A stretch of 64,000 nt of DNA from Burkholderiales bacterium (GTDB lineage Bacteria; Pseudomonadota; Gammaproteobacteria; Burkholderiales; SG8-41), in assembly GCA_036398235.1 (NCBI GenBank), contig DASWHI010000117.1, forward strand, positions 588 through 64,587. Reading direction: 5' to 3'. The notes under the pieces are model-generated. The model was not told where the DNA came from. It did no database searches and worked only from the letters and a program-made list of their open reading frames with translations. Below, in pieces: positions 1,177 through 37,505 of this stretch. Each line of letters starts with the position of its first letter. Position 1 is the stretch's first letter. The position numbers and the translations under genes are program-made.

Positions 1177-4100
1177 TTGCGACTCAAACAGATCAATCTG
1201 GCAGGCTTCAAGTCTTTCGTAGACCCCACCCACATACCCGTCCCCGGACAACTGGTAGGCATCGTCGGCCCCAACGGCTGCGGCAAGTCGAACGTCATCG
1301 ACGCCGTGCGCTGGGTGCTCGGCGAGACCTCCGCGAAGCACCTGCGCGGGGACACCATGCAGGACATCCTGTTCAACGGCTCGGGCCAGCGCCAGCCGGT
1401 GAATCGCGCGAGCGTCGAGCTGATTTTCGATAACAGCCTCGGCCGCGCGGCGGGACAGTGGTCGAGCTACGCCGAGATCTCGGTGAAGCGCGTGCTCGCC
1501 CGCGACGACGAGTCCACCGCCTACTACATCAACAATGTCCACGTGCGGCGCCGCGACGTCGCCGATATCTTCCTCGGCACCGGCCTCGGCAGCCGCGCCT
1601 ATGCCATCATCGAGCAGGGCATGATTTCGCGGGTGATCGAAGCGAAGCCCGAGGACCTGCGGATCTTCCTCGAGGAGGCGGCCGGCGTCTCGAAGTATCG
1701 CGCGCGCCGCCACGAAACCGAGCTCCGCCTCCAGGATGCGCGCGAGAACCTGCTGCGGGTGGAGGACGTGCGCGCCGAGCTCGAGAAACAGCTCGAGCAC
1801 CTGCAGGCGCAGGCGGAAGTGGCGACCCGCTATCACGAACTCCAGGCGCGGACGCGTGCGACGCAGAACCTGCTGTGGCTCCTGCGAAAACAGGACGCGG
1901 GCGCGCAGCGCGAGCGCCACGCCAGGGAGGTCGAACGGGCAGGGCTGGAGCTGGAAGCGCAGACCGCCGCGCTGCGCGCGGCCGAGATGCGTCTCGAGGA
2001 GATGCGGGAACAGCATTTCCGCTCGAGCGACGCCGTTCACGCCGCGCAGGGCGCCTTCTACGAAGCTAACGCGGAGACCGCGCGCCTCGAGCAGGAGATG
2101 GCGCATCTGCGTGAGAACCGCCAGAGGGTTGAGCGCGAGCTCGCCGACTTGCGCGCCCAGATCGATCGCGATCGTGACCAGCTGGCAGCGGCCCAGGCGG
2201 AGCTGACCGAGTGGCAGGGCGAACGCACCTGCGCCTCACAGCGGCTCACTGCGAGTGAAGCCGCACTGAAGCTCGAAGCAGGCAAGCTGCCGGTGGCAGA
2301 GGAGGCCTTCAAGGCCACCCGGGGCCGTTACGAGGAACTGCAGCGCACGCTTGCGCTAGCCGAGCAGGCGGCCGGTGTGGAGCGCACCAAGCACGAGTAT
2401 GCGCGGCAGACCCTGGAACAGCTTGCGCAGCGCACGCAGCGGCTGACTGACGAGCGCTCCGGATTGCAACCCGCGGATGCCGCTCAGCTGGCGCTTCTGC
2501 GCAACAATATCGCCGCGCTGGAAAATGAGTTGCGGGGATTCTCCGGAACGCTCGCGGCGCATGAGGCGCAGTTGCCACAGGCCGAGCAGGCACTGCGGGA
2601 TTGGGATGCGGCGGTCGAGGGCGCACGCGAGCGCTTGACCGGGGTCGACGCGCGGCTGCAGGCCTTGCGCCAATTGCAGGAACAGGTTGCACGCGGGGCA
2701 CAAACCGAAGGCTGGCTCGAGACCCGCGGGCTCAAGGGCGCGCCGCGGCTGTGGCAAGGCATCCGCATAGAGCCGGGCTGGGAGGGCGCGCTCGAGGCGG
2801 TTCTGCGCGAGCGCCTGAACGCCATCCCGTTGGAGCGACTGGAGCAGGCTGAAACCTGGTTCGCCGAGCCCCCTCCGGGAAAAGTCACGATATTCGCCGC
2901 GACGCGCGAGGTCGGGCAGGCGTCTGCGACGCTTGCCGGCTGCGAACCGCTAAGCCGCTACGTGAGCTGTACCGATGCCCGCATGGAGGCGGTGCTCGCG
3001 GACTGGCTGCACCGGGTCTATGTGATCAGCGATGCGGCAGGCGGCCTGGCGGCACGCGCGCAGCTTCCGGAGGGTGCGCTGCTCGTGACGCGCGAGGGGC
3101 ACATATTCACCCGTCACGCGGTGAGCTTCCATGCGCCCGACAACGAGCTTCACGGGGTATTGACCCGGCAACGCGAGATTGCGCAACTCGACGGCACGTT
3201 GCAAGAGGCACGGGCCGAGGTCGAGGAACTGCGAACGGCAGCAACCGCTGCCGAGCAGGACGTTCACGGGCGGCGCGCACGAATCGGCACGCTGCGCGAA
3301 ACGATCGGCGAGCGGCAGCGGCGCACCCATGTGCTGCAGCTCGAGGCAACGCGGCTCGCGGCAGTCGATGAGCGGGTGCGGAGCCGCACGCAGCAGATTG
3401 CGGCAGAGCTTGCCGAAATCGATGCCCAGGCGGACGTCACCTACGCGGCGGAGCAGGCGGCGTCGCGCCGCATAGCCGAACTGCAATCCGAAGTGGAGGA
3501 GCTGCGCGCCCAGCTGGCGTTGGCGACCGACCTCTACCAGCGCGCCGAGGGCGTGCTGGAGCGCCAGCGGTCAGCCTTGCAACAGGCGCGCGACGAGGCC
3601 CAGGCGGCGACTTTTGGAAAACAGTCATGCGACTCTAAAATCAATGAGATAGATTCATCAATTAAGGTTATTTCTGAAGGCGGCGAGAGGCTCCATTCGG
3701 CATTCGAGTCCAGGCAGAAGGAGTCCCAGAGTTTCGACGAAGCGCCGGTTCAGCAGCGCCTGCAGTTGGCCTTGACGACACGCACTCAGTGCGAACAGGC
3801 GCTGGCGCGCGCGCGCGATGCGCTGGACGGCATGGAAAACGGCCTCAAGGCGGTCGATGCAGAGCGCCACGCAGCGGAGCAGCAGCTCGAGCCGCTGCGC
3901 GAGCGCAGCGCGGAGGCGCGGCTCAGGGAACAGGAAGCGCGCTTGAACGAAGAGCAGTTTGCCGCGCAACTGACGGCTGCGGGCGCGATCGAGGACGAAG
4001 TTGCGCGGCAGTTGGAAAAGGGCATGCGGCCGGGCACGCTGGCCGCCGACATCAACCGGCTGGGCGAGGAAATCAATTCCCTCGGCGCGGTCAATCTGGC

Positions 4101-34143: not shown

Positions 34144-34442
34144 CGCGCCCCCCCGCGCATACAACTGTAAACACCGAAACCGAATCGTGCCGCGGGGTTG
34201 CTGCCGGTTTGTAGTACCTGTGTAGTCGTTGGGTTTACACGACAATCCCACTGCGGCGCGCACTTAGCGCAGCCTGGTAGGTGCGTATGGTGTGGTGGGG
34301 TCTTCGGGCGTTAAAGAACGCCCGAAGAGCGTTTCCGTTGCCGACGCTTTAGCGTCGGCCGGCAGAGCAGCGCCGGGCCCTCTGTCCACTGGACGAATAC
34401 TGAACAATTGGGGCCAGGTTCAGATTTCTTCTCGCTCCTTCA

Positions 34443-34775
34443 TCACTTGCAATTTTTCAGCTGATTCGAATCCCAACTGCGCCGTAAGCTCCCCCATCGA
34501 GTAGACAGCTCAGAAGTAGACTGTTTCGCCGCAAGGCGCTCGCGGTATAGCGCTGGTGGCAGGCTTCCCAGCGAATCATGGGATCGTTCCTCGTTGCAGG
34601 TCCTGAGCCACTCGCGCGAGATCTGGCGCACATCGCGTAGATCGGCGAACACGTAGGCGTCGAGCACCTCGTCGCGGTAGCTGCGATTGAAACGCTCGCT
34701 GAACGCGGTGTGATCCGTGAATGGAAAGGGGACTAAAACGATGTCGCCGAAGCTATAGCTTGTCGTAGGCGGCAT
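34443..34775 (-). pseudogene. chimeric remnant: first 21 codons of a second MazF-like toxin fused to the C-terminal end of an IS3-family transposase (rve domain tail)
   Basis: [21 protein letters not shown] is followed by HTAFSERFNRSYRDEVLDAYVFADLRDVRQISREWLRTCNEERSHDSLGSLPPALYRE, the conserved end of DDE/rve transposases. No transposase N-terminal part is present. Confidence 0.7.
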
Positions 34776-35008
34776 CTTCTTCGTTGTCCCAGATCTTGGC
34801 AAATGCCGGCTCGGCTGCGCGGGCGGCAGTGCGCACCCTCGCGCGCTCCCCGTCCCGCGTGCACAGGAAATCGACAAAGTCTTCGACCTCAGCCACCCGT
34901 TCCGGGGGCAGGTTCTTGAGCTTCTCAATGAGCGTGTTCGGATCTCGCGTGTTCATGCTAAAGCCGTCAATGTGAGCCAGACATTCTTGTACTCCTTCAC
35001 TGGAAAAT
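34712..35008. repeat. ~296-bp direct repeat, copy 2
   Basis: Aligns with 31084-31379. Confidence 0.85.
34753..34956 (-). CDS. type II antitoxin, second copy (its partner toxin is disrupted)
   Basis: [67 protein letters not shown]. It is the same length as the 31120-31323 product, with several substitutions. Confidence 0.6.
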   Translation of the reverse strand: MNTRDPNTLIEKLKNLPPERVAEVEDFVDFLCTRDGERARVRTAARAAEPAFAKIWDNEEDAAYDKL

Positions 35009-35043
35009 CGACTCGATGCGGGGCCGCGCCATCGGTGCTGCCT
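34997..35043 (-). pseudogene. orphaned ppsR 5' stub (MARPR then out of context) with the right copy of the 27-bp direct repeat (35017-35043)
   Basis: The reverse strand reads ATG GCG CGG CCC CGC ATC GAG TCG ATT TTC CAG TGA. The first 5 codons are identical to the ppsR start. The native ppsR/ppsA divergent spacer follows at 35044-35111. Confidence 0.75.
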
Positions 35044-35111: not shown

Positions 35112-37505
35112 ATGAGCGGCTCCCGCCTGACCCTCGATTTCGCAAGTCTGCGCATGACTGACGTTGCAGACGTCGGCGGCAAGAACGCCTCACTCGGCGA
35201 AATGATGAGCCAGCTCGGCGGAGCCGGCGTGCGTGTTCCGGGCGGATTCGCAACGACGGCGCAGGCATACCGCGAGTTCCTGGCGCAGGGGGGGCTCGAT
35301 CAGCGCGTGGCGGGGCGGCTGCGCGGGCTCGACGTCTCCGATGTCCCGGCATTGACACGGGCCGGCGAGGAGATCAGGGGCTGGATCCTCGCGCAGGACT
35401 TGCCCCGGCAGCTACAGCTGGACATCGCAGCGGCGTACCGCAAGCTGGCGGATGGCGCCGGGGCGGAGGCCACGTTTGCGGTGCGGTCCTCGGCGACGGC
35501 CGAGGATCTTCCCGACGCCTCGTTTGCCGGGCAGCAGGAAACCGTGCTCAACGTGCACGGGCTCGACCCTCTTTACGTGGCGCTGAAGCAGGTCTTCGCG
35601 TCGCTCTACAACGATCGCGCCATCTCGTACCGCGTGCACAAGGGCTTCACGCACGGCGAGGTTGCGCTGTCGGCCGGTATCCAGCGCATGGTGAGGAGCG
35701 ACCTCGGGTCGAGCGGGGTCGCGTTCACGCTCGACACCGAGTCGGGCTTCGACCAGGTGGTGCTGATCACGTCCGCCTACGGACTGGGCGAGACAGTAGT
35801 GCAGGGCAAGGTCAACCCGGACGAGTTCTACGTCTACAAGCGCGCCTTGCGCGAGGGAAAGCAGGCGATCCTGCGCCGCGGCCTCGGATCGAAGGCGGTC
35901 AAGATGGTATACGCCGGCTCGCGGCAGGCGGGAACGTCGGTGACGACGGTGAGCGTGCCGGAGATCGAGCGACGCCGCTTCTCGCTGAGCGACGCCGAGG
36001 TCGAGGAGCTCGCGCGCTACGCGCTCGCCATCGAGGACCATTACCGGCGGCCGATGGACATCGAGTGGGGCAGGGACGGCCTCGACGGGAAAATCTATAT
36101 TCTGCAGGCGCGTCCCGAAACCGTGAAGGCGAGGGAAAAGCCCGACACCCTGCGCCGCTACCGGCTGAAGCAGCGCTCCGAGGTCCTCGCGACCGGCCGC
36201 GCCATCGGCCAGCGGATCGGAGCCGGCCCGGTGCGCGTGATCCTCAGCGCCGCCGAGATGTCGCGCGTGCGCGAGGGCGACGTGCTGGTGACGGACATGA
36301 CCGACCCGGACTGGGAGCCGGTGATGAAGCGCGCGGCGGCGATCGTCACCAACCGCGGCGGCCGTACCTGTCACGCCGCCATCATCGCGCGCGAACTCGG
36401 CATACCGGCGGTGGTGGGCTGCGGGGACGCCACCCAGGTGTTGAAGGACGGGCGCCCGGTCACGGTTTCCTGCGCCGAGGGCGATACCGGCTTCGTCTAT
36501 CGCGGCATCCTCGAGGCGGAGATCATCGACCTCACGCTCAAGGGCATGCCCAGGGCGCCGGTGAAGATCACCATGAACGTCGGCAATCCCGAGCTCGCCT
36601 TCGAATTCCAGCGCCTGCCCAACGAAGGCGTGGGGCTCGCGCGCCTCGAGTTCATCATCGCGCGCATGATCGGCGTGCACCCCCGGGCGGTGCTCGCCTA
36701 TCCCGATCTGGGATCCGATCTCAAGCTCGCGGTCGAGGAGCACAGCGCCGGCTACCCGGACCCGGTGACGTTCTACGTGGACAAGCTCGCGGAGGGCGTC
36801 GCCACGCTCGCCGCGGCGTTCTGGCCCAAGCCGGTGATCGTGCGTCTGTCCGATTTCAAGTCGAACGAGTATTCGGCCCTCACCGGCGGGGCGCGCTACG
36901 AGCCGCGGGAGGAGAACCCGATGCTCGGCTTCCGCGGCGCGGGGCGCTACCTCGATCCCTCGTTCCGGGAATGCTTCGAGCTCGAGTGCCGAGCGTTGAA
37001 GAAGGTCCGCGACGGCATGGGGCTCACCAACGTCGAGATCATGGTGCCGTTCGTGCGCACCGTGGCCGAGGCGCGGAAGGTGCTCGAGCTGCTCGCCGCC
37101 AACGGCCTGAAGCGCGGGGAGGGCGGGCTGCGCGTCATCATGATGTGCGAGCTGCCGTCGAACGCGATTCTCGCCGACCGGTTCCTCGAGCATTTCGACG
37201 GCTTCTCCATCGGCTCCAACGACATGACTCAGCTGACCCTCGGCCTCGACCGCGATTCGGGCGTCGTCGCGGAGCAATTCGACGAGCGCGATCCGGCGGT
37301 GAAGGCGATGCTGCATCTCGCGATCCAGGCGTGCCGGCGGGCGGGCAAGTACGTCGGCATCTGCGGGCAGGGGCCGTCGGACCATCCGGATCTCGCGAAA
37401 TGGCTGGTGGAGGAAGGCATCGAGAGTATCTCCCTCAATCCCGACACGGTGGTGGAGACCTGGCTCTACCTCGCAAAGGAGACCGCAGGAGCGCAGAAAG
37501 CCTAG
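35112..37505 (+). CDS. ppsA: phosphoenolpyruvate synthase
   Basis: 797 aa with [11 protein letters not shown] at the N-terminus, a phosphohistidine region ([24 protein letters not shown]) and a C-terminal PEP-utilising TIM domain. Confidence 0.95.

Follow-up and report, generated by a model that had tools for sequence, protein, structure and literature searches.

A probable relic of a second DUF2281-PemK/MazF toxin-antitoxin module, joined to the end of an IS3-family element in an island within ppsR

How does an intact antitoxin gene come to stand beside a toxin gene that stops after 21 codons and runs on, in frame, into the end of a transposase? This question is raised by positions 34443-35008 of a 64,000-nt stretch of contig DASWHI010000117.1 (assembly GCA_036398235.1; Burkholderiales bacterium, SG8-41), referred to below as the window. 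The original prediction, made from the letters of the window, had described this region as a second, diverged copy of a toxin-antitoxin (TA) module whose toxin is fused to the tail of an insertion sequence (IS) transposase. We confirmed the observation and found its interpretation partly supported. Copy 2 is very probably the relic of a second type II TA module of the DUF2281-PemK/MazF kind, in which the toxin gene was joined to the end of a long-dead IS3-family element. The relic, an orphan antitoxin plus a junk fusion, is of well-known kinds; interest is somewhat raised by its context, namely an island in ppsR, a long duplication at the ends of this island, microhomology joints throughout and a TA family that often borders RHS cassettes.

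The intact module (copy 1) consists of the 115-aa PemK/MazF-like toxin T1 (30795-31142, minus strand) and the 67-aa DUF2281 antitoxin A1 (31120-31323, minus strand), which overlap by 23 nt. T1 covers the complete PemK domain (Pfam PF02452, 58.4 bits against a gathering threshold of 23.1, model positions 3-108 of 109) and has 2942 homologues, mostly of 115 aa; against the MazF equivalog it scored 21 bits, far under the cut-off of 120 bits. In copy 2 the orphan DUF2281 antitoxin A2 (34753-34956, minus strand, 67 aa), predicted to be intact and found to be so, overlaps the toxin stub T2' by 23 nt as well, and this type II operon layout recurs in 80+ relatives. A1 and A2 are identical at 61 of 67 residues, and both pass the gathering score of Pfam PF10047 (26.5) marginally, with 26.6 and 27.8 bits over model positions 1-28 of 64 only.

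Pairwise alignment of 31072-31386 with 34705-35014 gave 275 identical positions out of 310 (88.7%) with one 4-nt indel, and an independent repeat search returned 282 nt at 89% identity, in direct orientation and at a spacing of 3633 nt, which bears out the earlier claim that the two segments are homologous direct repeats. Truly homologous sequence begins at the Asp21 codon of the toxin (31080-31082 and 34713-34715) and reaches as far as the TA-unit end (about 31397 and 35023). Repeat copy 1 (31078-31397) thereby contains toxin codons 1-21, the antitoxin and the upstream region to the unit end ...TTACGGGG, and repeat copy 2 (34711-35023) contains T2', A2 and their upstream region, just as had been predicted. 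The 21 toxin codons encode the same peptide in both. Beyond them no PemK domain was left in copy 2: the open reading frame (ORF) of 110 aa that continues T2' matched rve_3 and rve_2 and not PF02452, and tblastn identity past codon 21 was at noise level.

Like MazEF and PemIK (Kis-Kid), the module combines a toxin of the PemK/MazF domain (PF02452) with a small antitoxin that has an acidic C-terminus, in the order antitoxin then toxin, with overlapping genes and within a compact 0.6 kb or so. Unlike in those systems, the antitoxin belongs to DUF2281 and not to MazE/AbrB or PemI, and copy 2 has only 21 toxin codons. No relative with a solved structure was found by sequence. Antitoxins of DUF2281 (COG5559) have been documented with PIN/VapC partners, among them the Synechocystis pairs ssl0385/sll0205 and ssr8013/slr8014 and a marine VapC/DUF2281 pair, validated in E. 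coli (PMC4963859; PMC12654330). The antitoxin family (PF10047) is the same here, whereas the toxin partner is PemK/MazF and the match covers just 28 of the 64 model positions, those at the N-terminus.

Past codon 21, copy 2 continues as a transposase. The 110-aa ORF (34443-34775, minus strand) is composed of 21 residues of T2', 71 residues of transposase tail and 18 residues of read-through. The transposase match begins at residue 24, right at the joint, with Pfam rve_3 at E=2.7e-13 and NCBIfam transpos_IS3 at positions 315-369 of 369, in agreement with the predicted in-frame fusion to the extreme C-terminus of a DDE/rve transposase of the IS3 family. All protein relatives of the tail proved to be C-terminal portions of IS3-family transposases (...QNAFIERFNRSYR...NSTSELST, then stop) with the pattern ...IQPGKPDQNAFIERFNRSYR(D/E)EVLDAYVF...SLGSLPPALYRERL..NSTSELST before the stop codon. 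In DNA, the similarity of the window to IS copies at loci L183, L187 and L188 amounts to 80-83% identity and is confined to 34483-34714/5. The copy at L188 is decayed but roughly full-length; it measures about 1.2 kb, and its inverted repeats are about 40 bp long. The stretch in the window (34483-34714, minus strand) retains the full right inverted repeat (...GGGGGAGCTTACG), which aligns to the right inverted repeats of all three copies and ends at 34483, and the last 70 or so transposase codons. Since the left inverted repeat is absent, the stretch is a remnant rather than an element.

Thus 232 bp of IS remain, which resemble an IS3-family element in tail, rve_3 match and right inverted repeat and differ from one in that orfA, the DDE aspartates, the left inverted repeat and the stop codon are missing; of the DDE (rve) core and the orfA/orfB pair, only the tail matched. 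No close named relative was found. An attempt to name the IS led no further than 827 plasmid records that are labelled 'IS3 family transposase' and share only about 51-53% amino acid identity with the tail. Among protein relatives, the best are fragments with 75-81% identity to the tail. Neither the window nor the protein database search yielded a close or intact copy of the IS, and no further IS3, TA or RHS sequence was found elsewhere in the 64-kb window.

The original prediction had attributed the junction to illegitimate recombination at a microhomology. This idea held, although the comparison offered for it, of toxin with fusion, was not the relevant one. T1 reads ...TTC ACC GAT CAG AGC GCC ATC... 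at the joint, the IS relatives, which serve as proxies for the IS parent, read ...CC(C/G) GAT CA(A/G) AAT GC(A/G) TTC ATC GAG... at the homologous place, and the window reads ...TTC ACG GAT CAC ACC GCG TTC AGC GAG.... Both parents thus code for Asp-Gln and have GATCA in common, perhaps C-GATCA-R-A, and past GATCA the window follows the IS (14 of 18 positions, against 9 of 18 for the toxin). We therefore read the joint at 34711-34715 (GATCA on the minus strand, toxin codons 21-22) as an illegitimate one at a short microhomology. A comparable product was seen in P0123 (L183-L186), likewise an ORF of 110 aa, in which an IS3 OrfA N-terminus is joined directly to the same tail (...ARAY followed by QNAFIERF...); this IS derivative has suffered an internal deletion, with a breakpoint at most a few codons away from the joint in the window.

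The transposase stop codon is TGA in the relatives and CGA in the window (34497-34499), so that the frame stays open for 18 codons more, to 34443, and crosses the inverted repeat into flanking DNA. Because only 21 of 115 toxin residues are left, amounting to one toxin strand, because the tail is without the catalytic DDE aspartates and because of the read-through extension, the fusion ORF is best read as junk, a pseudogene. That it should instead be a functional chimeric protein under selection is hardly credible. Its frame is open, the coupling overlap with A2 was kept and it is identical in all contigs; however, the population is near-clonal (at least 99.9% identity), so this identity is uninformative on selection, both catalytic Asp residues are gone from the tail, the last 18 residues are owed to a mutated stop, and the relatives of the tail are gene fragments in unrelated contexts.

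On the far side of the remnant, the terminus of the IS had been sought near 34402 ('tgaacaattgggg'). This placement was wrong: DNA homology to the IS relatives and the right inverted repeat both stop at 34483, which is therefore the end of the IS. The intervening 80 nt (34403-34482) are not IS sequence and match, at 87.5%, positions 3381-3460 of locus L097, on an unrelated contig, instead, with no other match in the fetched data. L097 belongs to a set of 86 TA loci (L097-L182) retrieved purely by toxin homology; the figures of the toxin-based metagenome scan cover the matches listed, and contigs of the same species were not among these. In both the window and L097 an RHS cassette is found directly upstream of the 80-nt segment. 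The two ends of the segment make up an imperfect inverted repeat (CAATTGGG / CCCAACTG), and the segment includes TTCGAATC. Its reading as a relic of a tRNA or att site or as a structured RNA was rejected: ARAGORN returned no tRNA, Rfam gave nothing relevant and folding z-scores were about 0.

Copy 2 had been called a second diverged copy, and a second TA copy it is; a simple duplicate of copy 1 it is not. A1 and A2 differ at 21 sites, by 15 synonymous and 6 non-synonymous changes (dS 0.41, dN/dS 0.10). Identity over the antitoxin core (31171-31323) is 86.9% between the copies, 88.9% between either copy and L097, and 87.6% between copy 2 and L102. The upstream regions of the copies are 74% identical, and reach up to 77% (copy 1) and 66% (copy 2) identity with those of other organisms. 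Since dS is about 0.41 and the core is no closer between the copies than to the modules of other organisms, the two copies are, judged by these distances, separate lineages of one widespread family and no fresh duplication.

The copies do share one stretch, 31084-31170, that covers the toxin start and the antitoxin end and is 97.7% identical. It holds perfect runs of 54 and 26 nt and differs at 2 of 87 positions, against 23 of 178 further on (Fisher p=0.006). This tract, together with the direct orientation of the copies 3.6 kb apart, would suit a history in which the TA module was recently duplicated in tandem on the spot and the RHS cassette and the IS then inserted between the copies. We consider that history very improbable. 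The tract is the most conserved part of the family, 89-93% identical in relatives, so constraint explains part of the similarity, and the excess may reflect gene conversion between the copies; the antitoxin dS of about 0.41, the upstream regions at only 74% and a core as close to L097, L102 and L110, all from other organisms, as to the neighbouring copy speak against a recent event. At site 34722 the window has T, and contigs L008 and L197 have the copy-1 base G, which may be due to gene conversion between the repeats or to assembler cross-talk.

The same island arrangement was found in at least 10 metagenome contigs, independently assembled from different samples, at identities of at least 99.9%. 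Several short-read contigs break off within the TA repeat, as is expected where a repeat is genuine. The T2'/IS arrangement is no assembly artefact. The island is fixed in one near-clonal population seen in metagenomes. Across the island, contig L008 is identical to the window, and in ppsA past 35762 it is about 10% diverged; because its differences are confined to ppsA beyond this position, it represents either a recombinant strain or a chimera made in assembly, and it was discarded as a diverged strain for selection tests.

Copy 2 turned out to form the right-hand end of an island, a context that the original prediction had not seen. The island (30787-35016, 4,230 bp) consists of TA1, a 5'-truncated RHS-tip cassette, the 80-nt segment, the IS scar and TA2', and was inserted within codons 1-5 of ppsR, which encodes the regulatory kinase/phosphorylase of phosphoenolpyruvate (PEP) synthase (29951-30775, minus strand; NCBIfam PpsR 410 bits, Pfam Kinase-PPPase). 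A perfect 27-bp duplication, TGCGGGGCCGCGCCATCGGTGCTGCCT, flanks it as direct repeats at 30760-30786 and 35017-35043, as was established by a 27-mer search and by comparison with the empty site. Next to the right copy come the native spacer of 79 nt between ppsR and ppsA and then ppsA (PEP synthase; 35112-37505, plus strand), which locus comparison identified as the native divergent neighbour of ppsR. The 27-mer comprises the ribosome-binding site of ppsR, its ATG and five codons and has two exact matches in the window, with 0 expected by chance. Its left copy is the live ppsR start, 19 nt past the T1 stop, and its right copy is dead. GC content is 56-59% in the island versus 65-70% in the flanks.

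As a control, 80 loci from related Burkholderiales metagenome-assembled genomes (L017-L096, 954 kb) were compared at the ppsR site. In about 66 of the 80, ppsR and ppsA stand side by side in divergent orientation with about 70-170 nt between them, and TA, RHS or IS sequence was found at ppsR in none of the 80. The empty site of the closest relatives is uninterrupted and reads ...GGTGCGGGGCCG(C/G)GCCATCGGTGCTG(C/T)CTCATG..., and the window carries CACAACGAAGGCAGCACCG at the joint of the toxin end with ppsR and GGAAAATCGACTCGATGCGGGG at the joint of the P2 end with ppsR.

Both ends of the island are ends of a TA unit, and the TA unit itself proved to be a discrete module of about 0.6 kb, compact and found in unrelated contexts. 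Among 575 pairwise comparisons of TA loci, only 19 showed homology further than 150 nt upstream of the antitoxin ATG, and only 6 showed it further than 20 nt past the toxin stop. A fixed upstream end, ...AAGT(T/A)ACGGG(G/A), is common to copy 1 (31390-31398), L107 (upstream of 2822) and L097 (upstream of 5820), and past the upstream end four unrelated continuations were observed. Copy 1 continues into an RHS-like gene that is entered mid-domain, with the joint CGGGGT (compare ...ACCGGGGTCAACCTCTTCCGG at 32059, in the second internal repeat of this gene). Copy 2 continues into ppsR codons 3-5, with the joint GCGGGG at the same position of the unit as the RHS joint. As the unit end of copy 2 coincides with the GCGGGG of ppsR, the end of the TA unit might account for 7 of the 27 duplicated nucleotides. 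On the toxin side the unit stops 8 nt past the stop codon (TGAcacaacga), directly abutting the left 27-mer; past the toxin stop the relatives have a terminator hairpin. We infer that all novel joints are illegitimate and lie at microhomologies: GATCA between T2' and the IS, CGGGGT between TA1 and the RHS gene, and GCGGGG between TA2 and ppsR.

To our knowledge, a target duplication of 20-27 bp is a product neither of homology-facilitated illegitimate recombination (HFIR) nor of any IS, and it is far longer than the target duplications of IS elements. A duplication of this length round a fixed-end TA unit of 0.6 kb is accounted for by no mechanism known to us. Long target duplications were rejected as a general property of this TA unit: around the distant members L131, L161, L175 and L149 the repeats on both sides are REP-like (repetitive extragenic palindrome) and palindromic, for example GTAGGAGCGGCGTCC...CGCCGCGATG arrays, and at L171 there is a microsatellite. 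A single unit, L173, has a direct repeat of 19/20 on both of its sides.

The perfect 27-bp repeats could also be taken as attL and attR of a degraded site-specific integrative island that arrived in one step; a composite delimited by two TA units would likewise have moved in one step, and the integration of an excised circle of 3,633 bp is a further variant. A one-step origin would agree with both island ends being TA-unit ends. It would also find a distant parallel at L141/L143 (Ga0316207_10000936), where the TA lies at the end of a 6.3-kb element that is tandemly duplicated at 99.8% and contains two tyrosine-recombinase-like ORFs, an 814-aa primase-like ORF and an HTH gene, with an RHS tip fragment after the first element copy and a 1,303-aa RHS gene after the second. 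We nevertheless regard these origins, taken together, as unlikely. Profile searches of the ORFs of 30787-35016 detected no integrase or recombinase, nor is there a functional transposase in the island; the other TA units are without a comparable flanking duplication, those repeats that were found being REP-like; and the 27-bp repeats may include 7 nt of TA-unit end.

Between the two TA copies, 3,633 nt apart, lies the RHS cassette that the repeats had correctly been predicted to flank. Its main ORF (31397-33466, plus strand) is truncated 5' and mid-domain at the TA1 boundary. It contains two repeats of about 220 aa with no assigned family (31393-31692 and 32059-32358, 78% nucleotide identity), a Big_7 Ig domain, the last 120 or so residues of an Rhs core and a C-terminal domain without family. 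The core end was recognised by TIGR03696 (82 bits versus a threshold of 32.5, residues 502-582) and by the Rhs cores and effectors in PDB (7q97, 8qja, 8uy4, 8cp6), which align to residues 465-586 only. A YD-repeat shell or an N-terminal delivery domain was not detected, as no YD or RHS_repeat model matched and NF041261 matched only at positions 1156-1261 of 1261. The ORF is followed by an 87-aa ORF in the position of an immunity gene (33489-33752, plus strand; no family match) and by a DUF2513/winged-helix protein of 122 aa (33775-34143, plus strand; Pfam PF10711, 93 bits). The PADLOC defence models gave no match for the TA proteins or the 87-aa ORF and a weak Csa3-like match (E=0.0014) for the DUF2513 protein.

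The island cassette is thus an orphan tip cassette, an incomplete Rhs gene. It resembles known orphan Rhs tip/immunity cassettes in its core end, variable C-terminal domain, small downstream genes and missing shell, and it differs from Rhs loci in that no main rhs gene and no type VI secretion genes lie nearby in the island. At L097 a TA unit (85% identity), an RHS core (79%) and the 80-nt segment (87.5%) follow each other in the order of the window, without an IS or a second TA.

How, then, did the island arise? We slightly, and tentatively, favour a capture in two steps. A single TA unit would have sat in ppsR first. This resident TA would then have captured, by HFIR, a foreign segment with a related TA, an RHS tip and a fragment of an IS: the 3' part of the toxin would have provided the homologous anchor, and the joint at GATCA would have been illegitimate. 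The stub of the resident toxin, its antitoxin and its promoter would have been left behind as copy 2. This order of events is inferred. The capture is favoured because both ends of the island are TA-unit ends, because L097 is a donor-like block, and because the novel joints are all illegitimate and at short microhomologies. Displacement of cassettes by recombination at orphan Rhs genes reportedly has precedent. HFIR is an established process, one put forward before now for effector/immunity arrays and for Rhs loci (PMC5361080). The island resembles that effector-immunity model in that a displaced stub and a kept antidote gene stand beside a newly arrived module; it differs from it in that the displaced pair is a classical TA and the homologous anchor would be the TA and not the Rhs core.

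Several findings keep the choice of route tentative. Neither a single TA at ppsR, nor an intact TA2, nor a full IS was found in the 17-22 same-species contigs or in the closest antitoxin relatives; the alleles searched were those with the exact A1, A2 or PpsR protein or with the A2 variant of 99% identity. At 91%, the nearest other antitoxin belongs to an intact module beside a tRNA gene elsewhere. In sliding windows the identity of T1 to its relatives is mosaic with no clean breakpoint, and a homologous-recombination breakpoint within T1 was dropped as a candidate since the family is too mosaic. Finally, the 20-27-bp duplication is left unexplained by this route, as it is by every other.

The completeness of the right IS end, which abuts non-IS DNA exactly as after a transposition, points to another history, which we take to be a real possibility, only slightly less likely than the capture. 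A complete IS3 element would have inserted in situ beside the 80-nt segment, next to an intact TA2, and a later deletion between GATCA repeats would have removed the 5' kilobase or so of the IS, any spacer and toxin codons 22-115, maybe under selection since it disarms a redundant toxin. Deletions between microhomologies of 5-9 nt are common, and TA modules usually decay by loss of the toxin with the antitoxin kept, so that copy 2 would follow the usual path. Against this route, it needs more events (arrival of a two-TA island with TA-unit ends, insertion of the IS, deletion), no intermediate allele was found among the same-species contigs, and no close or intact copy of the IS exists in the window or the protein database, where relatives are 75-81% identical fragments.

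Whether the two-step capture or another event placed the RHS tip beside the TA, the two recur together. A Rhs core end was found in 16 of the 86 TA loci, always on the strand opposite to the TA, and in 0 of the 80 ppsR controls. Among the TA loci of at least 3.5 kb the count was 12 of 42, on about 12 independent contigs. L130 has three orphan tip/immunity pairs followed by a convergent TA, and at L119 the TA lies between two RHS-type genes. A literature search returned no paper describing an association of DUF2281-PemK with RHS cassettes. The association with RHS tips is strong and consistent in strand, and, if functional, it would offer a testable model of how cassettes are gained and lost in polymorphic-toxin arrays. 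A bolder, and in our view doubtful, proposal is that DUF2281-PemK serves as a dedicated border module of RHS toxin-cassette arrays, being a fixed-end unit of 0.6 kb that provides portable homology on the strand opposite to RHS; RHS tips would be captured (by HFIR or integration of circles), exchanged and deleted via TA homology. If this were true, one such capture would have left the T2'::IS joint and the orphan antitoxin as its footprint, and the period of 3,633 bp would correspond to a single 'TA + cassette' unit within an array.

What does copy 2 do at present? A2 is probably still made, and together with its own upstream region it stands intact beside a destroyed toxin, 3.6 kb from the cognate-like T1, as is typical of orphan antitoxins. 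This class includes 'anti-addiction' antitoxins. Orphan antitoxins are frequent in surveys (PMC12654330). Because its C-terminal 24 residues are identical to those of A1, A2 could bind T1 as a surplus antidote, much as the original prediction had suggested, a prediction from sequence for and against which the case is about evenly balanced. What departs from the typical orphan antitoxin is an R32C exchange (34861-34863) at an otherwise invariant position, with Arg in all 10 other family members examined. Further points count against a working antidote: the 99%-identical population variant of A2 (L197) carries D29A (34871 T>G), a consensus scan found no promoter upstream of A2, and changes on the A2 branch were 4 non-synonymous to 4 synonymous (4N:4S) against 2N:9S for A1, a difference that is not significant (p=0.32). 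Relaxed selection on A2 was accordingly rejected as a finding. A1 for its part has Gln at codon 37 (31213-31215), a position with an otherwise invariant Glu.

With perfect runs of 54 and 26 nt, the two repeats are in principle a possible substrate for RecA, by which the 3,633-bp cassette could be lost; judged from the alignment, recombination within the 54-nt run would restore an A2-T1 module, intact, beside ppsA. The original prediction had suggested both deletion and amplification by this means. Set against this, no deleted or recombinant allele occurred among the 17-22 contigs, and neither an empty-site nor a cassette-deleted allele occurred among those with exact A1, A2 or PpsR or the 99% A2 variant. 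Copy 2 changes no concept: it represents a well-preserved case of TA decay, with the toxin lost and the antidote kept, at the edge of a mosaic island stitched together at microhomologies.

A consequence for the host may lie in ppsR itself. The native divergent promoter region of ppsR is now 4.2 kb away, beside ppsA. Having lost its native upstream region and starting 19 nt past the T1 stop, ppsR is probably read through from the A1-T1 operon. Such wiring would tie the regulation of PEP synthase to TA autoregulation and make TA1 hard to lose. The sole sigma-70-like match in the island, TTGATA-17-GAAAAT at 31351-31379 (plus strand), lies within the upstream region of TA1 and is directed towards the RHS ORF; the counterpart of this stretch in copy 2 faces ppsA.

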